Shown one piece after another: positions 29,891 through 64,000 of a stretch of DNA of 64,000 bases. Each line of letters opens with the position of its first letter. The first letter of the stretch is position 1. The stretch comes from Candidatus Levybacteria bacterium GW2011_GWA1_37_16 (GTDB lineage: Bacteria > Patescibacteriota > Microgenomatia > Levybacterales > UBA12049): contig CALRGR010000002.1 of the NCBI GenBank assembly GCA_943357985.1, forward strand, positions 306-64,305, written 5' to 3'. The translations under genes were made by a program, and so were the position numbers. Below the pieces are notes generated by a model, which was not told where the DNA came from, ran no database searches, and worked only from the letters and a program-made list of their open reading frames with translations.

Positions 29891-30331
29891 ATGAATCCTA
29901 CTGCCGATCCGGTTCAAGCAGTCCCAAATATTCAGACTGATCCATCCATAATCCTAGCATCTCCTATTCTCCCAGTTCCTGTTGTGTCTGGTTCTGGTGT
30001 GCATAAGGAGGAAGGCCCTGTAATTTCGTTTGCAAGTTCAGCAGAAACAGTTCCTATGATAAGTAAAGAGCTTGGAGAGATAGGAATCAAGACGCCTGTC
30101 CAGCATGATAATCCAAATTTGACAGTTGAGCATAATCAGGTAGGAATGACTATTTCTCCTTCAGCCCAGCCTGTTCCGGTGAAGCTTTCGGAAAATCCAT
30201 TTACTATGACTCCAGCACAAGCAAAATTTGAACAGAAAGGTTCTATAGAAAATTCTAGTTCATGGCTTGCAAAATTGTGGAATAAATTTTTTACACCTAA
30301 GCCACAAGTAATGAAAGGAGGATTGTCTTAA
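29891..30331 (+). CDS. Hypothetical Pro/Val-rich small protein, translationally coupled (ATGA) to the downstream ATPase
   Basis: ORF track; overlaps the start of the 30331 gene. Confidence 0.3.
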   Translation: MNPTADPVQAVPNIQTDPSIILASPILPVPVVSGSGVHKEEGPVISFASSAETVPMISKELGEIGIKTPVQHDNPNLTVEHNQVGMTISPSAQPVPVKLSENPFTMTPAQAKFEQKGSIENSSSWLAKLWNKFFTPKPQVMKGGLS

Positions 30332-32712
30332 TGAATCCGGTATCATTTTCCTTAGATAGTCTTGTTCAGTTTTTGACGGCCTTTTTAATAGGCCTTGCTC
30401 TTTCTATAGTTTTAGTAGGTCTTGCGGCTTTAGGAGTTTATCTACTTAGTGTCTGGTATAGAAATAGAGAAAGAGAGAAGTATTCTTTGGACTCAACTCT
30501 TCTTCAGGTTTCCCTAGCGCGGGACAATGAGATAAAAATAGATGCAGCAGAACAGCTTTTCTCTTCTCTTGCATCATTTAGAAAAAGCGGAAGGTTTTCT
30601 TTTTTGCATCTTCAGCCGCACATTTCTTTTGAAATAGTAGGAATGCCTGCCGATATAAGGTTTTATATATACGTTCCTAATAAACTTAAGGACTTTGTAG
30701 AAAAGCAAATAAACGGAGCATATCCTGATGCTGAGATAAAAACTGTAGAAGAAAAATCTTCAATGAGAGAAGGTTATACAGTAGGAAATGAATACAATAT
30801 TTTTTCAAAAGAAGGAAAGGTAGCTTTTGCCAGCTTAAAGCTTAAAAAGTCTGATTATATGCCAATTAAAGTTTATAAAGATTTGGCTACAGATCCACTC
30901 TCTTCAATTACTTCAGTACTTGCCAAAATGACAGAAGGAGAGGGAGCAGCAATTCAAATTTTAATTTCTCCTGCTGAGGGAAAATGGAAGAAATTTGGAC
31001 GGACACATCTTTCCAAAGTTAAAAAAGCAGAAGCAAATCCGGAAACAGCAAAATATTCGGCAGATCCTAAGGAGCTTGAAGGAATCGAGAATAAAATCGG
31101 GAAATCAGGCTTTGATACCGTAGTTAGAATTGTTGTCAGCTCAAGCACAAAAGAGGCAGCGGATGCTCATCTGGGAAATATAGTGAACGCTTTTAATCAG
31201 TTTTCCGGAGCAAATTCCTTTACAAAAAATAAATTAAGACTTAAAGGAATGTTTATGGCTGATTTTATCTATAGATATCTTCCAATGAGAAAAGGGCAGA
31301 CTTCGGTTCTTTCAAGTGAAGAATTGGCAACTGTTTTCCATCTTCCAAATAAGTCTGTTGCAACTCCTCATATTTTCTGGGTAAGTTCAAAAAGAGCGCC
31401 GGCCCCCTCCCAAATCCCCGATCATGGTCTTTTTCTTGGGAGAAGTACCTATAGGGGCCTTTCTAAGCCCGTCCATATAGACATAGATGATAGGCGCAGA
31501 CACATGTATATTATTGGAAAAACAGGAACTGGAAAATCTGAGTTTCTTAAGGCTATGATAATGCAGGATATTAATAATGGCGAAGGTCTTGCTGTTATTG
31601 ATCCGCATGGAGATTTAATTGATGACATTTTACAGCTTATTCCTTCAAATAGGGCAGAAGATGTTATTTTATTTGATCCATCAGATACAACCCGTCCGAT
31701 GGGTTTTAATATGCTAGAAGCCTCAACGGAGGAGCAAAAGCATTATGTTGTAACCTCAATCATCGGCCTCATGTATAAACTTTTTGACCCAAACAAAACC
31801 GGAATTATCGGGCCTCGCTTTGAGCATGCTATAAGAAACGCAATGCTAACGGTTATGTATGATCCAGGAGCTACTTTTATTGAAGTTGTAAGAGTTTTAA
31901 CAGATGCAAATTTTGTACAGGAACTTTTGCCAAAAGTCCAAGATCCAATTATTAGGAGATACTGGACAGACCAGATAGCACAAACTAGTGATTTCCATAA
32001 GTCTGAAGTGCTAGATTACATTGTTTCTAAATTTGGCCGTTTTGTTACAAATAAAATGATAAGAAATATCATTGGTCAATCTTATAGTTCTTTTAACTTC
32101 AGGCAGGTAATGGATGAGAAGAAAATTTTACTTGTTAATCTTTCAAAAGGAAAAATTGGGGAAGAGAATTCAAATTTCTTGGGGCTAATACTTGTTCCTA
32201 AAATTCTAATTGCTGCAATGAGCCGTCAAGATGTGCCACAAGACCAGAGAAAAGACTTCTTTTTATACGTTGATGAGTTCCAAAACTTTGCAACTCCTGA
32301 CTTTGCTCAAATACTTTCCGAAGCCCGAAAATACAGACTTAATTTAATTGTTGCAAACCAGTTTGTTGGACAAATGGATGAGGAAGTGAAAAATGCTATA
32401 TTTGGAAATGTTGGAACGGTTGCCTCTTTTAGAGTTGGAGTTACGGATGCAAACTATCTGCAGCATGAATTCCAGCCAACGTTTACAGAAGCAGATCTTA
32501 TAAATATTGACAGATTTAATACTTATATTAAAACTATTGTTGGAGGGGAGCCTGTGCCGCCTTTCTCTATGGATTTAACACGCGATATGACAGCAGAAAA
32601 AGCAATGGCAAATCCAAGAATTGCCGAGCTTATAAAAGAACTTTCACGTCTAAAATATGGACGCGATGCGATTCAGATTGAAGCAGAAATAGGGCAGCGC
32701 GCAAAGCTTTAG
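30331..32712 (+). CDS. Membrane-anchored FtsK/HerA-superfamily P-loop ATPase, TraD/VirD4 (T4SS coupling-protein)-like
   Basis: N-terminal TM segment, a ~350-aa N-domain, then Walker A IIGKTGTGKSEF, VIDPHGDL, Walker B LYVDEFQNF, and an ARKYRLNLIVANQ...VKNAIFGNVGTVASFRV C-terminal pattern shared by T4CP and FtsK motors. Confidence 0.6.
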   Translation: MNPVSFSLDSLVQFLTAFLIGLALSIVLVGLAALGVYLLSVWYRNREREKYSLDSTLLQVSLARDNEIKIDAAEQLFSSLASFRKSGRFSFLHLQPHISFEIVGMPADIRFYIYVPNKLKDFVEKQINGAYPDAEIKTVEEKSSMREGYTVGNEYNIFSKEGKVAFASLKLKKSDYMPIKVYKDLATDPLSSITSVLAKMTEGEGAAIQILISPAEGKWKKFGRTHLSKVKKAEANPETAKYSADPKELEGIENKIGKSGFDTVVRIVVSSSTKEAADAHLGNIVNAFNQFSGANSFTKNKLRLKGMFMADFIYRYLPMRKGQTSVLSSEELATVFHLPNKSVATPHIFWVSSKRAPAPSQIPDHGLFLGRSTYRGLSKPVHIDIDDRRRHMYIIGKTGTGKSEFLKAMIMQDINNGEGLAVIDPHGDLIDDILQLIPSNRAEDVILFDPSDTTRPMGFNMLEASTEEQKHYVVTSIIGLMYKLFDPNKTGIIGPRFEHAIRNAMLTVMYDPGATFIEVVRVLTDANFVQELLPKVQDPIIRRYWTDQIAQTSDFHKSEVLDYIVSKFGRFVTNKMIRNIIGQSYSSFNFRQVMDEKKILLVNLSKGKIGEENSNFLGLILVPKILIAAMSRQDVPQDQRKDFFLYVDEFQNFATPDFAQILSEARKYRLNLIVANQFVGQMDEEVKNAIFGNVGTVASFRVGVTDANYLQHEFQPTFTEADLINIDRFNTYIKTIVGGEPVPPFSMDLTRDMTAEKAMANPRIAELIKELSRLKYGRDAIQIEAEIGQRAKL

Positions 32713-32754: not shown

Positions 32755-32826
32755 GGGTGCGTAGCTCAGTGGTAGAGCGCTACTCTTATAAAGTAGATGT
32801 CCTTGGTCCGATCCCAAGCGCACCCA
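32755..32826 (+). tRNA. tRNA-Ile (anticodon UAU)
   Basis: Hand-folded cloverleaf. Acceptor GGGTGCG/CGCACCC, D-arm GCTC-AGTGGTA-GAGC, anticodon stem CTACT/AGTAG with loop CTTATAA, T-arm CTTGG-TCCGATC-CCAAG, discriminator A. Confidence 0.7.
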
Positions 32827-32828
32827 CA

Positions 32829-34736: not shown

Positions 34737-35597
34737 TTATAGTTCGGACATTATTGCGGTTTCTTTTGCTCTGTCAGGAACAAAATCAAGATATCTTTCG
34801 GTTGTTGAGAGTCTTTTATGGCCCAAAAGCTTGGAAAGTAAGACCAAAGAAATGCCGTGGCGCAAGTGATGTGCAACAAAAGTGTGCCTTAAATCATTTA
34901 CTTTGGCGTTTTTAATTTCCGCAATTCTAAAGTAGCGCTCAATTGCAGTTCTAATATTTCTAACCAAGAATGATTTTCCTGACTTGGTCACAAAAAGCGG
35001 CCCGCTTTCAATCTTGGGTCTAATTTCAAGATAGCGTCTTAAAGCCTCACGGGAACGGGCATTGAGAGGAACATCTCTTTCTTCATGTTTTTCAACTGCT
35101 GGAATATGAAGAGAATCTTTTTTAACATCTTCCATTTTTAAAGCTGCAAGTTCTCCAATTCTAATTCCTGTTTGAAGTAAGATCTCAATAATGGCATACA
35201 TTCTGGCATCATTTTGAGCCGCATCTCTTAGTGCTCTATATTCCGTAGGAGTTAAAATTCTAGGTGGAGCTAAGTGATATTGTGGATGATCAACTAAAAG
35301 AGAAGGGTCGTCTGTTATATATTCATTGATTTTCAAAAACCTATAGAAAGTACGGGTGGAATTGAGCTTTCTTGAGATTGATTTAGCTGTGTAACCGTTT
35401 TTGCTCATTGAGGCTAAAAAGGCATCAATGTCTTCTTTATCTACTTCATGAATATGGTTCTTTTTAAGCTCATTTAAGAACGTTACAAGCTGTTCCACAT
35501 CCTTACCGTATGCTACAATAGTAGCACTTGAGTTTTTGTTGCCTTTAAGATAATTTCTGAACTCTTCATTTGCGTCCGAAAGCTTTATGATTTTCAT
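34737..35597 (-). CDS. Tyrosine site-specific recombinase (XerC/XerD-like); start taken at MKIIKL
   Basis: C-terminal catalytic region ...LRHTFVAHHLRHGISLVLLSKLLGHKRLSTTERYLDF (R..H..R..Y). The first 20 codons in the ORF track come from a repeat element. Confidence 0.8.
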   Translation of the reverse strand: MKIIKLSDANEEFRNYLKGNKNSSATIVAYGKDVEQLVTFLNELKKNHIHEVDKEDIDAFLASMSKNGYTAKSISRKLNSTRTFYRFLKINEYITDDPSLLVDHPQYHLAPPRILTPTEYRALRDAAQNDARMYAIIEILLQTGIRIGELAALKMEDVKKDSLHIPAVEKHEERDVPLNARSREALRRYLEIRPKIESGPLFVTKSGKSFLVRNIRTAIERYFRIAEIKNAKVNDLRHTFVAHHLRHGISLVLLSKLLGHKRLSTTERYLDFVPDRAKETAIMSEL

Positions 35598-35712
35598 AGT
35601 TCGATATATCAATCTTCGATTTCGCTCAGCATCCTGAGCTTGCCGAAGGATAAACAATATCCTATAATATCAAGAATGAAGCTAATAGTCAAGAAGCATT
35701 TATAAAAGGCTT

Positions 35713-36054
35713 ATGAAAAGAATTATATTCGCAATTTTAGTTTTCAGCTTAAGCTTAGTAATCGTTGGTCTTGCCCGTTCAATATATGACCTTTGGAAAA
35801 AGCAAGATTTGGTTATTTCTTATCAAAAACAGCTTGTAAAACAGAAAAATGAGAATCAGACACTAAAACAAAAGCTTTCATTAACAAATAACCCTAAATT
35901 TGTAGAACAGCAGGCAAGAGACAATCTTTTCCTGTCAAAACCGGGGGAACAGAATATACTTATTCCCAGCGGGCTTCTTATAAGTAGTAGTTCCGCAAGG
36001 CCTATAGAAGACCTAATTCCAAATTGGAAGAAATGGTGGAACCTGTTTTTCTAG
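35713..36054 (+). CDS. Septum formation initiator (FtsB/DivIC family)
   Basis: N-terminal TM helix, coiled-coil, then FVEQQARDNLFLSKPGEQNILIP, a DivIC-like motif. Confidence 0.6.
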   Translation: MKRIIFAILVFSLSLVIVGLARSIYDLWKKQDLVISYQKQLVKQKNENQTLKQKLSLTNNPKFVEQQARDNLFLSKPGEQNILIPSGLLISSSSARPIEDLIPNWKKWWNLFF

Positions 36055-36296
36055 AATTTCAAATTTAAAACTTTTATTTTCTTAGTCTTATCCCAGCCCT
36101 TAATTTGGCTTTCTCTTTTTAAAGCTTCAGATTGGGAACTAAGCTCCTCTAGGTAAACTTTCTTAATAGGTTTATGAGATCTTGTGTATCTTCCACCCTT
36201 GCCGTTTTTATGGTCGGAAAATCTTCTGTCTGGATTGTTCGAGGAGCCAGTATAAAGACTTCCGTCTGAACACAAAAGTATATAAACAAACCACAT
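36051..36296 (-). CDS. GIY-YIG (URI-domain) nuclease, UPF0213-like; start taken at MWFVYILLC
   Basis: FVYILLCSDGSLYTGSSNNPDRRFSDHKNG...YTRSHKP is the GIY-YIG motif. Confidence 0.7.
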   Translation of the reverse strand: MWFVYILLCSDGSLYTGSSNNPDRRFSDHKNGKGGRYTRSHKPIKKVYLEELSSQSEALKRESQIKGWDKTKKIKVLNLKF

Positions 36297-36742
36297 AGAA
36301 AAGTGCTTGCACTGAACTGAGCGAAGCAATGAAATCGCACTTGCCCTTCGACGCGATTTTCGCATGTGCTCAAGTCTTGCTCAGGACACTTCATCTGTGC
36401 TTCGCCCAGCTGAAGTGTTGCGGGGCTGGGAGTTGGACCCAGCCTACAAGATTATGCAATCTGTTTCTCCGGTTACCCAGAGTGTCGGACTATATCATCA
36501 TCCTTGATAAATCTAGGATGTTCAGCGTATAGTCTCTACGGGGTCAATCTCGATTAAATCGGGACGACTTCCCTCGGTATTGCCCTTTGTCTAGGGTTTC
36601 ACCGATATAGCTAAATTCTCTTTTATACGTTGCCGTATAAAGGGCCCATTTTTGAGCCTCGTGTGCACCGTACACTACCCCGCGCGTTTGAACATTATAC
36701 AATTTGATTTAAGGCTCGTCAACCTGATAAAATAGGTGGCAA

Positions 36743-36815
36743 GCCAGGGTAGCTCAGTGGTTAGAGCACAAGATTCATATCCTTGCGGTCGTGGGTTCAA
36801 CTCCCACCCCTGGTA
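36743..36815 (+). tRNA. tRNA with anticodon CAU (elongator Met; an Ile2/lysidine type cannot be excluded)
   Basis: Hand-folded. Acceptor GCCAGGG/CCCTGGT with G1-U72, D-arm GCTC-AGTGGTTA-GAGC, anticodon loop TTCATAT, T-arm GTGGG-TTCAACT-CCCAC. Confidence 0.7.
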
Positions 36816-39930: not shown

Positions 39931-41775
39931 ATGGCAGCCTTAACCCCAAGCAAAAGAAAAAAGTCAAAAATTATAAGAGTAAATCTTTCTTGGAAAAACG
40001 CGCTTATCTACGGTTTTGTCTTACTTTTTATTGCTTTCACTTTTTTTGGATTTAATCAGTCAGTTGAACCCAAGAAGGTAGTCCCAATTTCTCAGATAAT
40101 TAGTGATGTAAGACAAGGAAAGGTTTCTGAAATTAAGGTATCTGATATTGTTCTTACAGTTACCGAAAAAGATAAGATACTTACTAGTACAAAAGAGCCT
40201 GGTCAAAACGTTTACCAGCTCTTCAAAGATGCTGGAGTGTCACTTGATAAGACAAAAGTCATTATTAAGGATGACACTGGTCTTAATTCTTGGATAAATA
40301 TTCTCTCTTCCGTTTTGCCAATACTTTTGATGGTTGGATTTTTCTACTTTATCTTTAGACAAGCCAGGGGTGCGCAGGAAAATATATTTTCCTTTGGTCA
40401 GTCGCGTGCAAAGCTTTTTAGCAAAGACACTCCTAGAATTAAATTTTCCGATGTAGCCGGAGTAGACGAAGCAAAACAGGAGTTAGCCGAGATTGTAGAT
40501 TTTCTAAAGCACCCTGAAAAATATAAAGCAATGGGAGCAAGGACTCCAAAGGGAGTACTTATGGTAGGACCTGCAGGAACAGGAAAAACTCTTTTGGCAC
40601 GTGCTACTGCAGGAGAAGCAAATGTACAATTCTTTTCAATAGCAGGATCTGAATTTATGGAGATGTTGGTTGGAGTTGGGGCTTCAAGAGCACGGGACCT
40701 TTTTGCTACTGCAAAAAAATCACAGCCGGCAATAATCTTTATTGATGAAATTGATGCAATTGGAAGACAGCGTGGAGCCGGATTTATGGGAGGACACGAT
40801 GAGAGGGAACAGACTCTTAATCAAATTCTTGTTGAAATGGACGGATTTACTCCAAATGAGCAACTTATTGTTATGGCAGCAACCAATAGGCCAGATGTAT
40901 TGGATCCGGCACTCATAAGGCCAGGAAGATTTGATAGGCGTGTAATTTTGGATATGCCGGATATTGTTGGAAGAAAGGCAATTTTAGCCATTCATGCACG
41001 TGGCAAGCCCTTTGTTAAAAACCTTGATTGGGATAAAGTTGCAAGACGTACAGTTGGGTTTTCTGGAGCTGATATTGAAAACATGTTAAATGAGGCGGCA
41101 ATTCTAGCTGCAAGACTTGAGAAAAAGGCAATTGATATGAAAGATCTTGAAGAAGCGGCAACAAAAGTAAAGCTTGGGCCGGAAAAAAGACGTCTTCAGT
41201 CAGATGAGGATAAGAAAATGACCGCGTATCACGAAGCAGGACATGCTTTGGTTTCTTGGCAAATGCCGCATTTGGACCCGATTCACAGAATTTCAATTGT
41301 TGGCCGTAGCGAATCTTTGGGGCAGACAGAAATTGCGCCCGAAGACAGAGTTCATGAGACGAAAACAAGGTTAATTGAGCAGATTGCAATGGCAATGGGA
41401 GGAAGAGCTGCCGAAAGTGTGGTCTTTTCCGAAATGACAACAGGAGCGTCAAGTGATTTGAAAAAGGCAACAAGACTGGCGCGTCTTATGGTTGTTGAAT
41501 TTGGAATGAGTGATCTGGGGCCAATGACTTTTGATGAAGATACTAAGTCTTATTATGAAAGTAACCAGACTTCTGAAAACATGAGCGCCAAAATTGATGA
41601 GCAGATTAAAAAAATAACAGATGTAGCCTACAAGCAAGCAATAGCAATCATATCTAAATTTAGAGATAAGCTTGATATTCTAGCGGAAGAGCTTTTGAAA
41701 AAAGAAACTTTGGAATCTGAAGAATTCTTGGCTCTCATGGGTCCCCGCAAGGCATTCTCTTTTGCCAAAGCCTAG
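39931..41775 (+). CDS. ftsH: ATP-dependent zinc metalloprotease FtsH
   Basis: N-terminal TM helices, AAA module ([13 protein letters not shown]), HEAGH Zn site. Confidence 0.9.
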
Positions 41776-62901: not shown

Positions 62902-62974
62902 GGGCCCGAAGTTTACCCGGTTGAACGCCTCGTTTGCAACGAGGAGGTAGGGAGTTCGACTCTCCTCGGGTCCA
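62902..62974 (+). tRNA. tRNA-Ala (anticodon UGC)
   Basis: Hand-folded. Acceptor GGGCCCG/CGGGTCC with the G3-U70 Ala identity pair, D-arm GTTT-ACCCGGTT-GAAC, anticodon loop TTTGCAA, T-arm GGGAG-TTCGACT-CTCCT. Confidence 0.85.
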
Positions 62975-63271
62975 CCCAGATAGGGAATAGGGATTAGCGT
63001 ATAGGGTATAGTTTCTTGACGCTTTGAGTTTAGAATTTACTAAACGCTAAACGCTAGCAACTAAAACCTAATTTTAGTCATTGCTTTTTGGTCTTCGTTA
63101 CGCAAGTTCTGCGTCAAGACCAGAAAATAGTGACTAAGTCTTAAATTAGCTCTTTAACAAGCGAAGAGAAGAAATGTAAGCCTACGTTCACTGGGGTGAA
63201 CGTAGCATAGTAAGTAATTACCTACTAAATTGTACGTCTGGATTAATAGGATTCAGGGAGCGATTTAATAG

Positions 63272-64000
<729 letters not shown>

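Follow-up and report, generated by a model that had tools for sequence, protein, structure and literature searches.

The subject of this analysis is a single transfer RNA (tRNA) gene in a 64,000-nucleotide stretch of contig CALRGR010000002.1, referred to below, at its full length of 64 kb, as the window. The gene encodes a tRNA-Ile whose anticodon, UAU, is written directly in the genome, and whose T-loop carries C at position 55, where U is near-universal. The gene and its two distinguishing parts are as follows:

32755–32826, forward strand: tRNA-Ile with a genomically encoded UAU anticodon, 72 nucleotides (nt), supported by ARAGORN, Rfam, the minimum free energy (MFE) fold and covariation.
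32787–32789, forward strand: the anticodon TAT (U34 A35 U36), from the sequence and ARAGORN, in the loop CTTATAA, with C32 and U33 before it and A37 and A38 after it.
32807–32813, forward strand: the T-loop TCCGATC (U54 C55 C56 G57 A58), from the sequence and the Rfam alignment, with C55 at 32808.

ARAGORN called a tRNA-Ile at 32755–32827 (+), with the anticodon (tat) at gene position 33, and Rfam RF00005 (gathering score, 29) matched 32755–32826 at full length (1–71) with 69.6 bits (E = 4e-13) and zero non-canonical pairs flagged, the highest score of the three tRNAs returned by the Rfam search of the window. The MFE structure obtained with RNAfold is the exact cloverleaf (-25.9 kcal/mol). 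Read from the sequence and numbered by hand from the 3' end, the acceptor stem is GGGTGCG/CGCACCC (7 bp), the D stem GCTC/GAGC (4 bp) with a D-loop, AGTGGTA, in which G18 and G19 are present, the anticodon stem CTACT/AGTAG, the variable loop ATGTC and the T stem CTTGG/CCAAG; the discriminator base is A73 and the CCA end is not encoded. The gene is, thus, a tRNA by the RF00005 model, with a UAU anticodon in a tRNA-Ile body. The T-loop is not canonical, with C at 32808 in place of U55/pseudouridine-55, the most universally conserved modified position of tRNA, which contacts G18 at the elbow (PMC7912444). The remaining conserved tertiary positions are canonical: U8, A14, G15–C48, G18, G19, A21, G53–C61, U54–A58 and C56. 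A sequence-only reading of this DNA had described a clean cloverleaf with a CUUAUAA anticodon loop and a UAU anticodon, together with a non-canonical T-loop bearing C55. The first part is borne out by ARAGORN, which returned the same anticodon and structure in the window, and by the Rfam score and the RNAfold structure; the second agrees with the sequence and the Rfam alignment.

The codon that this anticodon matches is common. ATA accounts for 521 of the 18,801 codons of 60 open reading frames (ORFs) in the window, i.e. 27.7 per 1000 and 35% of Ile codons. The meaning of the codon was assessed by aligning seven window proteins with their orthologues (268 high-scoring segment pairs), using orthologue residues encoded by codons other than ATA. 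Window ATA positions align with Ile at a frequency of 0.54, Val at 0.17, Leu at 0.10 and Met at 0.05; this profile is that of ATT and ATC and is unlike that of ATG (Met, 0.57). On these alignments, AUA means Ile in this genome, which would make a cognate AUA decoder essential. No other candidate for this role was found in the 64-kb window, the two CAU tRNAs of which read as an elongator and an initiator type.

Bacteria usually read AUA through the enzyme TilS, which converts C34 of a CAU tRNA-Ile2 to lysidine; TilS is present in 98.18% of 1093 bacterial genomes and has been called evolutionarily stable (PMC6063277). A six-frame scan of the window for the SGGxDS PP-loop motif gave no match, and none of the approximately 50 window ORFs scanned with Pfam was identified as TilS, TruB, isoleucyl-tRNA synthetase (IleRS) or a deaminase. 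A PP-loop scan of the related loci fetched for comparison (0.94 Mb) returned only a serine hydroxymethyltransferase and a Dph6-like ORF, although these loci are all centred on the UAU tRNA, cover about 1% of any genome and are uninformative about tilS. In the window, trpS rather than tilS-hpt precedes ftsH (39931–41775), a position often occupied by tilS-hpt in other bacteria; this gene order is a weak indication against a TilS route.

The complete genomes of relatives are more telling. Nakagawa et al. (2026) give tRNA counts for 95 complete Patescibacteria genomes (PMC13011429, Table S2), and ARAGORN names tRNAs by anticodon alone, such that "Ile" excludes CAU tRNAs and "Met" covers all of them. 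Tabulated from that source, two or three Ile tRNAs are found with at most two CAU tRNAs in 12 of 12 Microgenomatia; two of each are found in 7 of 7 Dojkabacteria, and two or three Ile with two CAU tRNAs in 13 of 20 Paceibacteria. One Ile and three CAU tRNAs are found in 27 of 36 Saccharimonadia, 6 of 7 members of JAEDAM01 and 3 of 5 Gracilibacteria. These complementary counts suggest, in our own reading of the table, a class-level split between genomes with GAU and UAU tRNAs and genomes with a GAU tRNA and a lysidine-modified CAU tRNA; this complementarity is not discussed by the authors of PMC13011429. With two Ile tRNAs defined by their anticodons and no more than two tRNAs carrying CAU, the sets of these Microgenomatia would have no room for a lysidine-dependent tRNA-Ile2.

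It could be argued that TilS and a tRNA-Ile2(CAU) are encoded elsewhere in the genome and that the UAU tRNA is an auxiliary reader of AUA. The view of the genome is 64 kb, and such coexistence is documented in other bacteria, a UAU tRNA beside the TilS route having been proposed for Lactobacillus casei/plantarum, Cyanothece and Ferrimonas (PMC3575796). Two Ile and three CAU tRNAs also occur together in 10 of the 95 complete Patescibacteria genomes, 7 of the 10 belonging to Saccharimonadia, so both routes can coexist in the phylum. However, a third CAU tRNA is found in none of the 12 complete Microgenomatia, the window already has one initiator-type and one elongator-type CAU tRNA, and a frequency of 28 AUA per 1000 codons is far above that of a typical rare codon served by a minor tRNA. 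A redundant decoder is, thus, an unlikely explanation, and the UAU tRNA is, on these counts, most probably the sole AUA reader of this organism.

The distribution of the gene was assessed by scanning genomes, one per species, for a pattern combining the D-arm of the UAU tRNA with CTTATAA. At least 119 loci matched, nearly all of them in metagenome-assembled genomes (MAGs) of the Candidate Phyla Radiation (CPR/Patescibacteria), and the same UAU tRNA gene was found in more than 110 species-level CPR genomes. The names among the matches listed include Levy-, Roizman-, Gottesman-, Curtiss-, Yanofsky-, Jorgensen-, Magasanik-, Harrison-, Staskawicz-, Portnoy-, Dojka- and Berkelbacteria, and CPR3; about nine of the loci listed are non-CPR (e.g. 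Streptomyces, Planctomycetes). Many loci tagged "uncultured Gammaproteobacteria" show a Microgenomates gene order, and these labels therefore look unreliable. The only GAU tRNA-Ile seen among the fetched loci (L014) has a 72-nt design and a D-arm identical to those of the UAU tRNAs, the bodies being closely alike. The statement in the sequence-only reading that a UAU tRNA-Ile is uncommon therefore holds for bacteria overall, given the prevalence of TilS, and fails for this lineage, in which UAU is the norm; its guess that the genome belonged to the CPR is confirmed by the species-genome scan and by synteny, and the comparison that it proposed with the tRNA sets of related CPR genomes shows that the same UAU gene and C55 recur there. 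For comparison, nine species in three clades were known in 2013 to lack tilS and to have a tRNA-Ile(TAT) (PMC3575796). In one locus (L113), the pattern matches twice, about 50 nt apart: immediately before a complete UAU tRNA gene stands the 5' half of another, which comprises acceptor, D-arm and anticodon loop and is followed by an A/T-rich run. This half gene may be the remnant of a duplication or integration event.

The position of the gene is also conserved, as can be seen from its neighbours:

30331–32712, forward strand: a VirD4/TraD-like DUF87 ATPase (Pfam DUF87/TrwB; NCBIfam VirD4-like hits below cut-off), which serves as the synteny anchor.
34737–35657, reverse strand: an Xer-type tyrosine recombinase (Pfam Phage_integrase and SAM_1; best NCBIfam matches XerD, XerC and archaeal XerA).
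35713–36054: divIC, adjoining the Xer gene.

Orthologues of the ATPase, with 46–90% amino-acid (aa) identity, adjoin the UAU tRNA in 28 loci among the matches listed. The nearest relative among these matches is L013, a Levyibacteriota MAG, with aa identities of 90% for the ATPase, 86% for Xer and 71% for DivIC. From the closeness of L013 and the shared ATPase/Xer/DivIC order, the source of the window is, as judged by sequence, a Levybacteria-like member of Microgenomatia (CPR/Patescibacteria), and the UAU tRNA a vertically inherited, syntenic core gene at a fixed chromosomal position directly after the VirD4-like ATPase gene. The tRNA begins 42 nt past the ATPase stop codon and ends 2 nt ahead of the following start codon, and, given these distances, it is probably co-transcribed and processed; a promoter and terminator scan around it gave no signal above shuffled expectation.

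The tyrosine recombinase 1.9 kb downstream and the coupling-protein-like ATPase directly upstream raise the question of whether an integrative or conjugative element carries the tRNA as cargo or uses it as its target site. The sequence-only reading had gone some way in this direction by placing the tRNA against a recombinase-containing region, which overstates their proximity: two unrelated genes, encoding a putative sugar O-methyltransferase-like protein and a PIG-L/BshB-like deacetylase, lie between the two. Elements that target tRNAs are recognized by an adjacent integrase, a bounding repeat and a patchy presence; here, the Xer gene is at a distance, no direct repeat of the 3' part of the tRNA, and no att-like repeat, was found within 16 kb, and tblastn places the Xer gene in over 20 of the related tRNA loci, about a dozen of which have divIC next to it. 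The recurrence of the ATPase beside the tRNA, and of Xer and divIC in many of the same loci, is that expected of vertically inherited core genes. The recombinase scores best as XerD, XerC or XerA, all under the equivalog cut-offs of NCBIfam, and the flanking genes are housekeeping genes (ribonucleotide reductase (RNR), MurD, TrpRS and FtsH). The mobile-element explanation was therefore rejected, given the lack of an att repeat, the ATPase/Xer/divIC synteny among relatives and the Xer-type scores, and we consider it very improbable. On gene order and family scores, the Xer recombinase is merely part of the surroundings of the UAU tRNA, with no functional tie to it.

The second peculiarity of the gene, C55, recurs in its orthologues. 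Among the matches listed, 105 genome-derived UAU tRNAs (that of the window included) have TTC in 76 cases, TCC in 26 and CTC in 3 at the start of the T-loop; the copy of the window region in L001 stops inside the UAU tRNA and gives no independent read of position 55. An independent metagenome scan, which required the anticodon and T arm, accepted either pyrimidine at position 55 and placed no constraint on the D-arm, found C55 in 39 of 115 UAU tRNA sequences, or 27 of 69 distinct ones, with G18–G19 invariant. In total, C55 occurs in 65 of 219 UAU tRNAs (30%) versus 14 of 280 other tRNAs of the same loci (Fisher p = 5e-14, a value that overstates independence, because the loci were chosen through the UAU tRNA and the genomes are related). 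The only other class rich in C55 is Gly-GCC (8 of 25), the remaining tRNAs having it in about 2% of cases. No description of this C55 pattern was found in the searchable literature.

Several observations bear on whether the C55 genes are intact. The 25 C55 orthologues display eight T-stem backgrounds and many acceptor and anticodon stems; when they are aligned on the cloverleaf, standard pairs fill 99.6% of cells, and double (compensatory) changes are seen at 14 of the 21 pairs. None of 500 shuffles reaches these pairing and covariation values, and slid structures are only 31–43% paired. This pairing, with compensatory changes beyond those of shuffles, indicates that the C55 tRNAs are, in sequence terms, functional genes under stem-preserving selection rather than decaying ones. 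The opposite view, that loss of U55 marks a tRNA withdrawn from the ribosome or a decaying copy, finds a precedent in the staphylococcal cell-wall tRNA-Gly, which have TGC or TGT in place of TTC, no pseudouridine and poor EF-Tu binding (PMC7826273). Those non-proteogenic tRNAs are extra paralogues with a UGY T-loop, an altered D-loop and a canonical decoder beside them, a description that does not fit the UAU tRNA. The latter is single-copy and the only AUA-cognate tRNA seen, for a codon making up more than a third of Ile codons; its U55 and C55 forms occupy the same syntenic position in different genomes and are never found side by side; its stems covary perfectly; it has the top Rfam score among the tRNAs returned for the window, and it keeps G18–G19, unlike G55-type tRNAs. 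A pseudo-tRNA or non-translational tRNA is, thus, scarcely credible here.

The two kinds of T-loop also differ in what accompanies them: G18–G19 is kept in 78 of 79 C55 tRNAs, whereas G55 T-loops (TGC or CGC) are paired with GG-less D-loops in 31 of 32 cases. CPR tRNA-Cys, tRNA-Phe, tRNA-Leu(UAA) and some tRNA-Gly(GCC) have a TGC T-loop (G55) and a D-loop without G18–G19 (L019, L035, L051, L090, L119, L120 and others); each is the only copy of its own anticodon in the stretch fetched, and the triplet is the same as that of the staphylococcal cell-wall tRNA-Gly. Four UAU tRNA-Ile genes, in L030, L033, L060 and L119 (Yanofskybacteria and related), have the T-loop CTCGATC, which combines C54 with U55; judging from the sequence, C54 would break the U54–A58 reverse-Hoogsteen pair.

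The distribution of C55 among relatives points to repeated change. A neighbour-joining tree of the ATPase distributes C55 over five or more distinct branches (the window, L022 with L089, L114, L008, and L058 with L062), and L013, the sister of the window on this tree, has U55. In the metagenome sample, both U55 and C55 are represented in 9 of the 28 types of acceptor stem. It is tempting to see a function in C55 itself, for instance a change in how the ribosome, RNase P or EF-Tu handles the elbow, or to suppose a post-transcriptional deamination of C55 to U. The strong enrichment in just two isoacceptors (Ile-UAU and Gly-GCC), the persistence of C55 on many backgrounds with intact stems, and toggling between U and C where U is otherwise obligatory, which is the pattern that editing would give, all speak for such an explanation; a tRNA deaminase, CDAT8, reportedly acts on C8 in Methanopyrus kandleri. 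Near-identical tRNAs and sister genomes nevertheless differ at position 55, which is more suggestive of drift than of a fixed adaptive state; no covarying partner was found, G18–G19 and the rest of the loop being unchanged, and no deaminase was seen among the scanned ORFs of the window. A dedicated function for C55, or its editing, is therefore improbable; C55 would instead be a tolerated, near-neutral and recurrent U/C polymorphism in a functional CPR tRNA.

The two CAU tRNAs of the window, on which part of the decoding argument depends, lie downstream of divIC, together with a small ORF:

36743–36815, forward strand: a CAU tRNA, most likely the elongator tRNA-Met (ARAGORN; Rfam 66.2 bits).
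36417–36684, reverse strand: a split initiator-type CAU tRNA with a C1–A72 mismatch (Rfam Intron_gpI, 84.6 bits).
36684–36655, 36654–36457 and 36456–36417: the 5' exon, the group I intron (198 nt, between positions 33 and 34) and the 3' exon, respectively, of the split initiator.
36051–36365, reverse strand: a GIY-YIG-only ORF of 104 aa, starting about 50 nt downstream of the intron-bearing tRNA and outside the intron.

The assignment of 36743–36815 as the elongator tRNA-Met, made by elimination, is the most likely one; its orthologues (L015, L027, L037, L072) are always beside the initiator tRNA. This tRNA has a G1–U72 pair, an anticodon loop reading UUCAUAU and an A31–C39 mismatch closing the anticodon stem; this mismatch is common to the same four orthologues and, being kept in them, looks selected. 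The split initiator was missed by ARAGORN; its joined exons form a 70-nt tRNA identical at 62 of 70 positions to intronless orthologues in L015 and L007, and insertion at 33/34 in tRNA-fMet is a known intron site (PMC13011429). Its D-arm is unusually short and its T-loop, TCCAACT, also has C55. The intronless initiator orthologues (L007, L015, L020 and others; e.g. L015 4752–4821) have the T-loop CGCAACT (C54 G55 C56) and a D-loop without GG, such that their entire elbow is, by sequence, non-canonical; this form, CGCAACT with a GG-less D-loop, is found in 19 of the 67 CAT tRNAs of the fetched loci. The GIY-YIG ORF, which has a single weak homologue in the fetched loci (L041), may encode a free-standing homing endonuclease or a common small GIY-YIG protein.

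Taken together, these results suggest that the UAU tRNA is a working AUA decoder independent of the TilS route, syntenic in Microgenomatia and most probably the sole AUA reader, in which C55 is a recurrent near-neutral U/C polymorphism. We give this explanation as a whole a probability of roughly 0.78. AUA would be read directly, U34 of the UAU anticodon pairing with the third-position A, and the conversion of C34 to lysidine would be bypassed, tilS being presumably absent. The IleRS of the lineage would have to accept UAU, either through a basic residue at the Trp905 position, as in Mycoplasma mobile, or by being an archaeal/eukaryotic-type IleRS2. Misreading of AUG would be limited by competition from tRNA-Met and by the ribosome, and A37 would carry the usual t6A modification (N6-threonylcarbamoyladenosine). 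In its C55 form, the tRNA would lack pseudouridine-55 and the G18–pseudouridine-55 contact, and most likely folds normally, because the elbow keeps G18, G19, C56, U54–A58 and G53–C61.

Some points weigh against this explanation, in addition to the ten complete genomes with both sets of tRNAs and the relatedness of the loci behind the C55 enrichment. That tilS and a third CAU tRNA are lacking is presumed from 64 kb and from counts for other genomes of the class; Table S2 gives amino-acid labels only, and taking the second "Ile" to be TAT is our own reading. ARAGORN misses some CPR tRNAs, the split initiator of the window among them. A KMSKS scan of the fetched loci found only TrpRS-like ORFs and two LeuRS-like ORFs of about 805 aa (L021, L052, so assigned by motif context), and no IleRS was found there or in the window. 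Finally, the near-neutrality of C55 is inferred from the toggling between U and C.

A more general scenario extends the preferred explanation to the phylum: Microgenomatia, Dojkabacteria and much of Paceibacteria/ABY1 would have dropped lysidine and TilS and would read AUA through the UAU tRNA only, Saccharimonadia, Gracilibacteria and Absconditabacteria would keep the three-CAU set, and, in about a third of Microgenomates, the decoder would run with C55, either without pseudouridine-55 and its contact with G18 or with the C repaired by C-to-U editing. We regard this wider scenario as an even bet. No account of tilS, lysidine or AUA decoding by UAU in CPR/Patescibacteria was found in the searchable literature, and the ava2C paper and the IleRS preprint leave the CPR out. 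Reading AUA with a UAU anticodon is an established solution and, in this lineage, the usual one; the split between UAU and CAU across the phylum and the recurrence of C55 in what appears to be an essential single-copy decoder seem to go beyond the descriptions found.

The rest of the window, with a G+C content of 37.9%, contains the ordinary housekeeping genes of a small genome, including those for penicillin-binding proteins, pentose-phosphate and glycolytic enzymes, a class II RNR with NrdR, MurD, TrpRS, FtsH, RecF, Pth and an ATP-dependent ligase. A tRNA-Ala(UGC) followed by the 5' end of the 23S rRNA lies at the end of the window (62902–64000). No 16S rRNA or tRNA-Ile(GAU) was found upstream of this tRNA-Ala in the window, protein genes extending up to 62702, and the rRNA genes therefore appear to be unlinked or their operon atypical.

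How AUA is told apart from AUG is a classic question about the genetic code, and the bacterial enzyme TilS is regarded as essential and evolutionarily stable, and as a drug target. If the scenario outlined above is true, a bacterial radiation with a plain UAU anticodon would be the biggest natural exception to TilS and would offer many independent cases of IleRS and the ribosome coping with U34. The toggling of U55 and C55 in a single essential tRNA would likewise be a natural experiment on the need for pseudouridine-55 and the G18–55 elbow contact. In practical terms, annotation pipelines should not mark UAU tRNAs with C55 as pseudogenes, and completeness marker sets containing TilS would under-score these genomes. 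The TilS family TIGR02432 is one of the bac120 markers of GTDB.

The known systems closest to this tRNA differ in how much they share with it. Like the canonical tRNA-Ile2, in which CAU becomes LAU through TilS, it reads AUA as Ile, apart from AUG, and has A73 and A37–A38; unlike it, its anticodon is TAT rather than CAT, such that no lysidine would be needed and TilS is probably absent. The staphylococcal non-proteogenic tRNA-Gly resemble the C55 form as bacterial tRNAs without U55 and, hence, without pseudouridine-55 (PMC7826273), although they have G55 and altered D-loops and are extra paralogues kept off EF-Tu and the ribosome, whereas the tRNA described here has C55, keeps G18–G19 and would be the single decoder of a frequent codon. 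In a Bacillus subtilis suppressor of tilS deletion (tRNA-Ile1 G34U; PMC3919564 and the discussion in PMC3575796), a tRNA-Ile1-like body with UAU takes over AUA in the same way; that tRNA is a laboratory product, whereas the UAU tRNA here is a natural conserved gene. Bifidobacterium and Neorickettsia also decode AUA with UAU and without TilS, and have a eukaryote-type IleRS, their adaptation being attributed to an IleRS2-type enzyme gained by horizontal transfer (PMC3575796). The closest likeness is to the tRNA-Ile2(UAU) of M. mobile, in which a genomic UAU reads AUA as Ile in a small genome, with the same loop context (U33, A37, A38) and, by inference here, the same lack of a lysidine route. 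In M. mobile, the UAU anticodon is unmodified, IleRS reads it through Arg865 (the Trp905 position of Escherichia coli) and AUG is discriminated against at the ribosome; no mention of C55 was seen in the paper on this system (Taniguchi et al. 2013; PMC3575796). The absence of tilS, the unmodified U34, the role of Arg865 and the discrimination against AUG were shown by experiment in that species, whereas the decoding route proposed here is predicted from genes. M. mobile represents an isolated loss within Tenericutes; here, the trait appears to span whole classes of a phylum.

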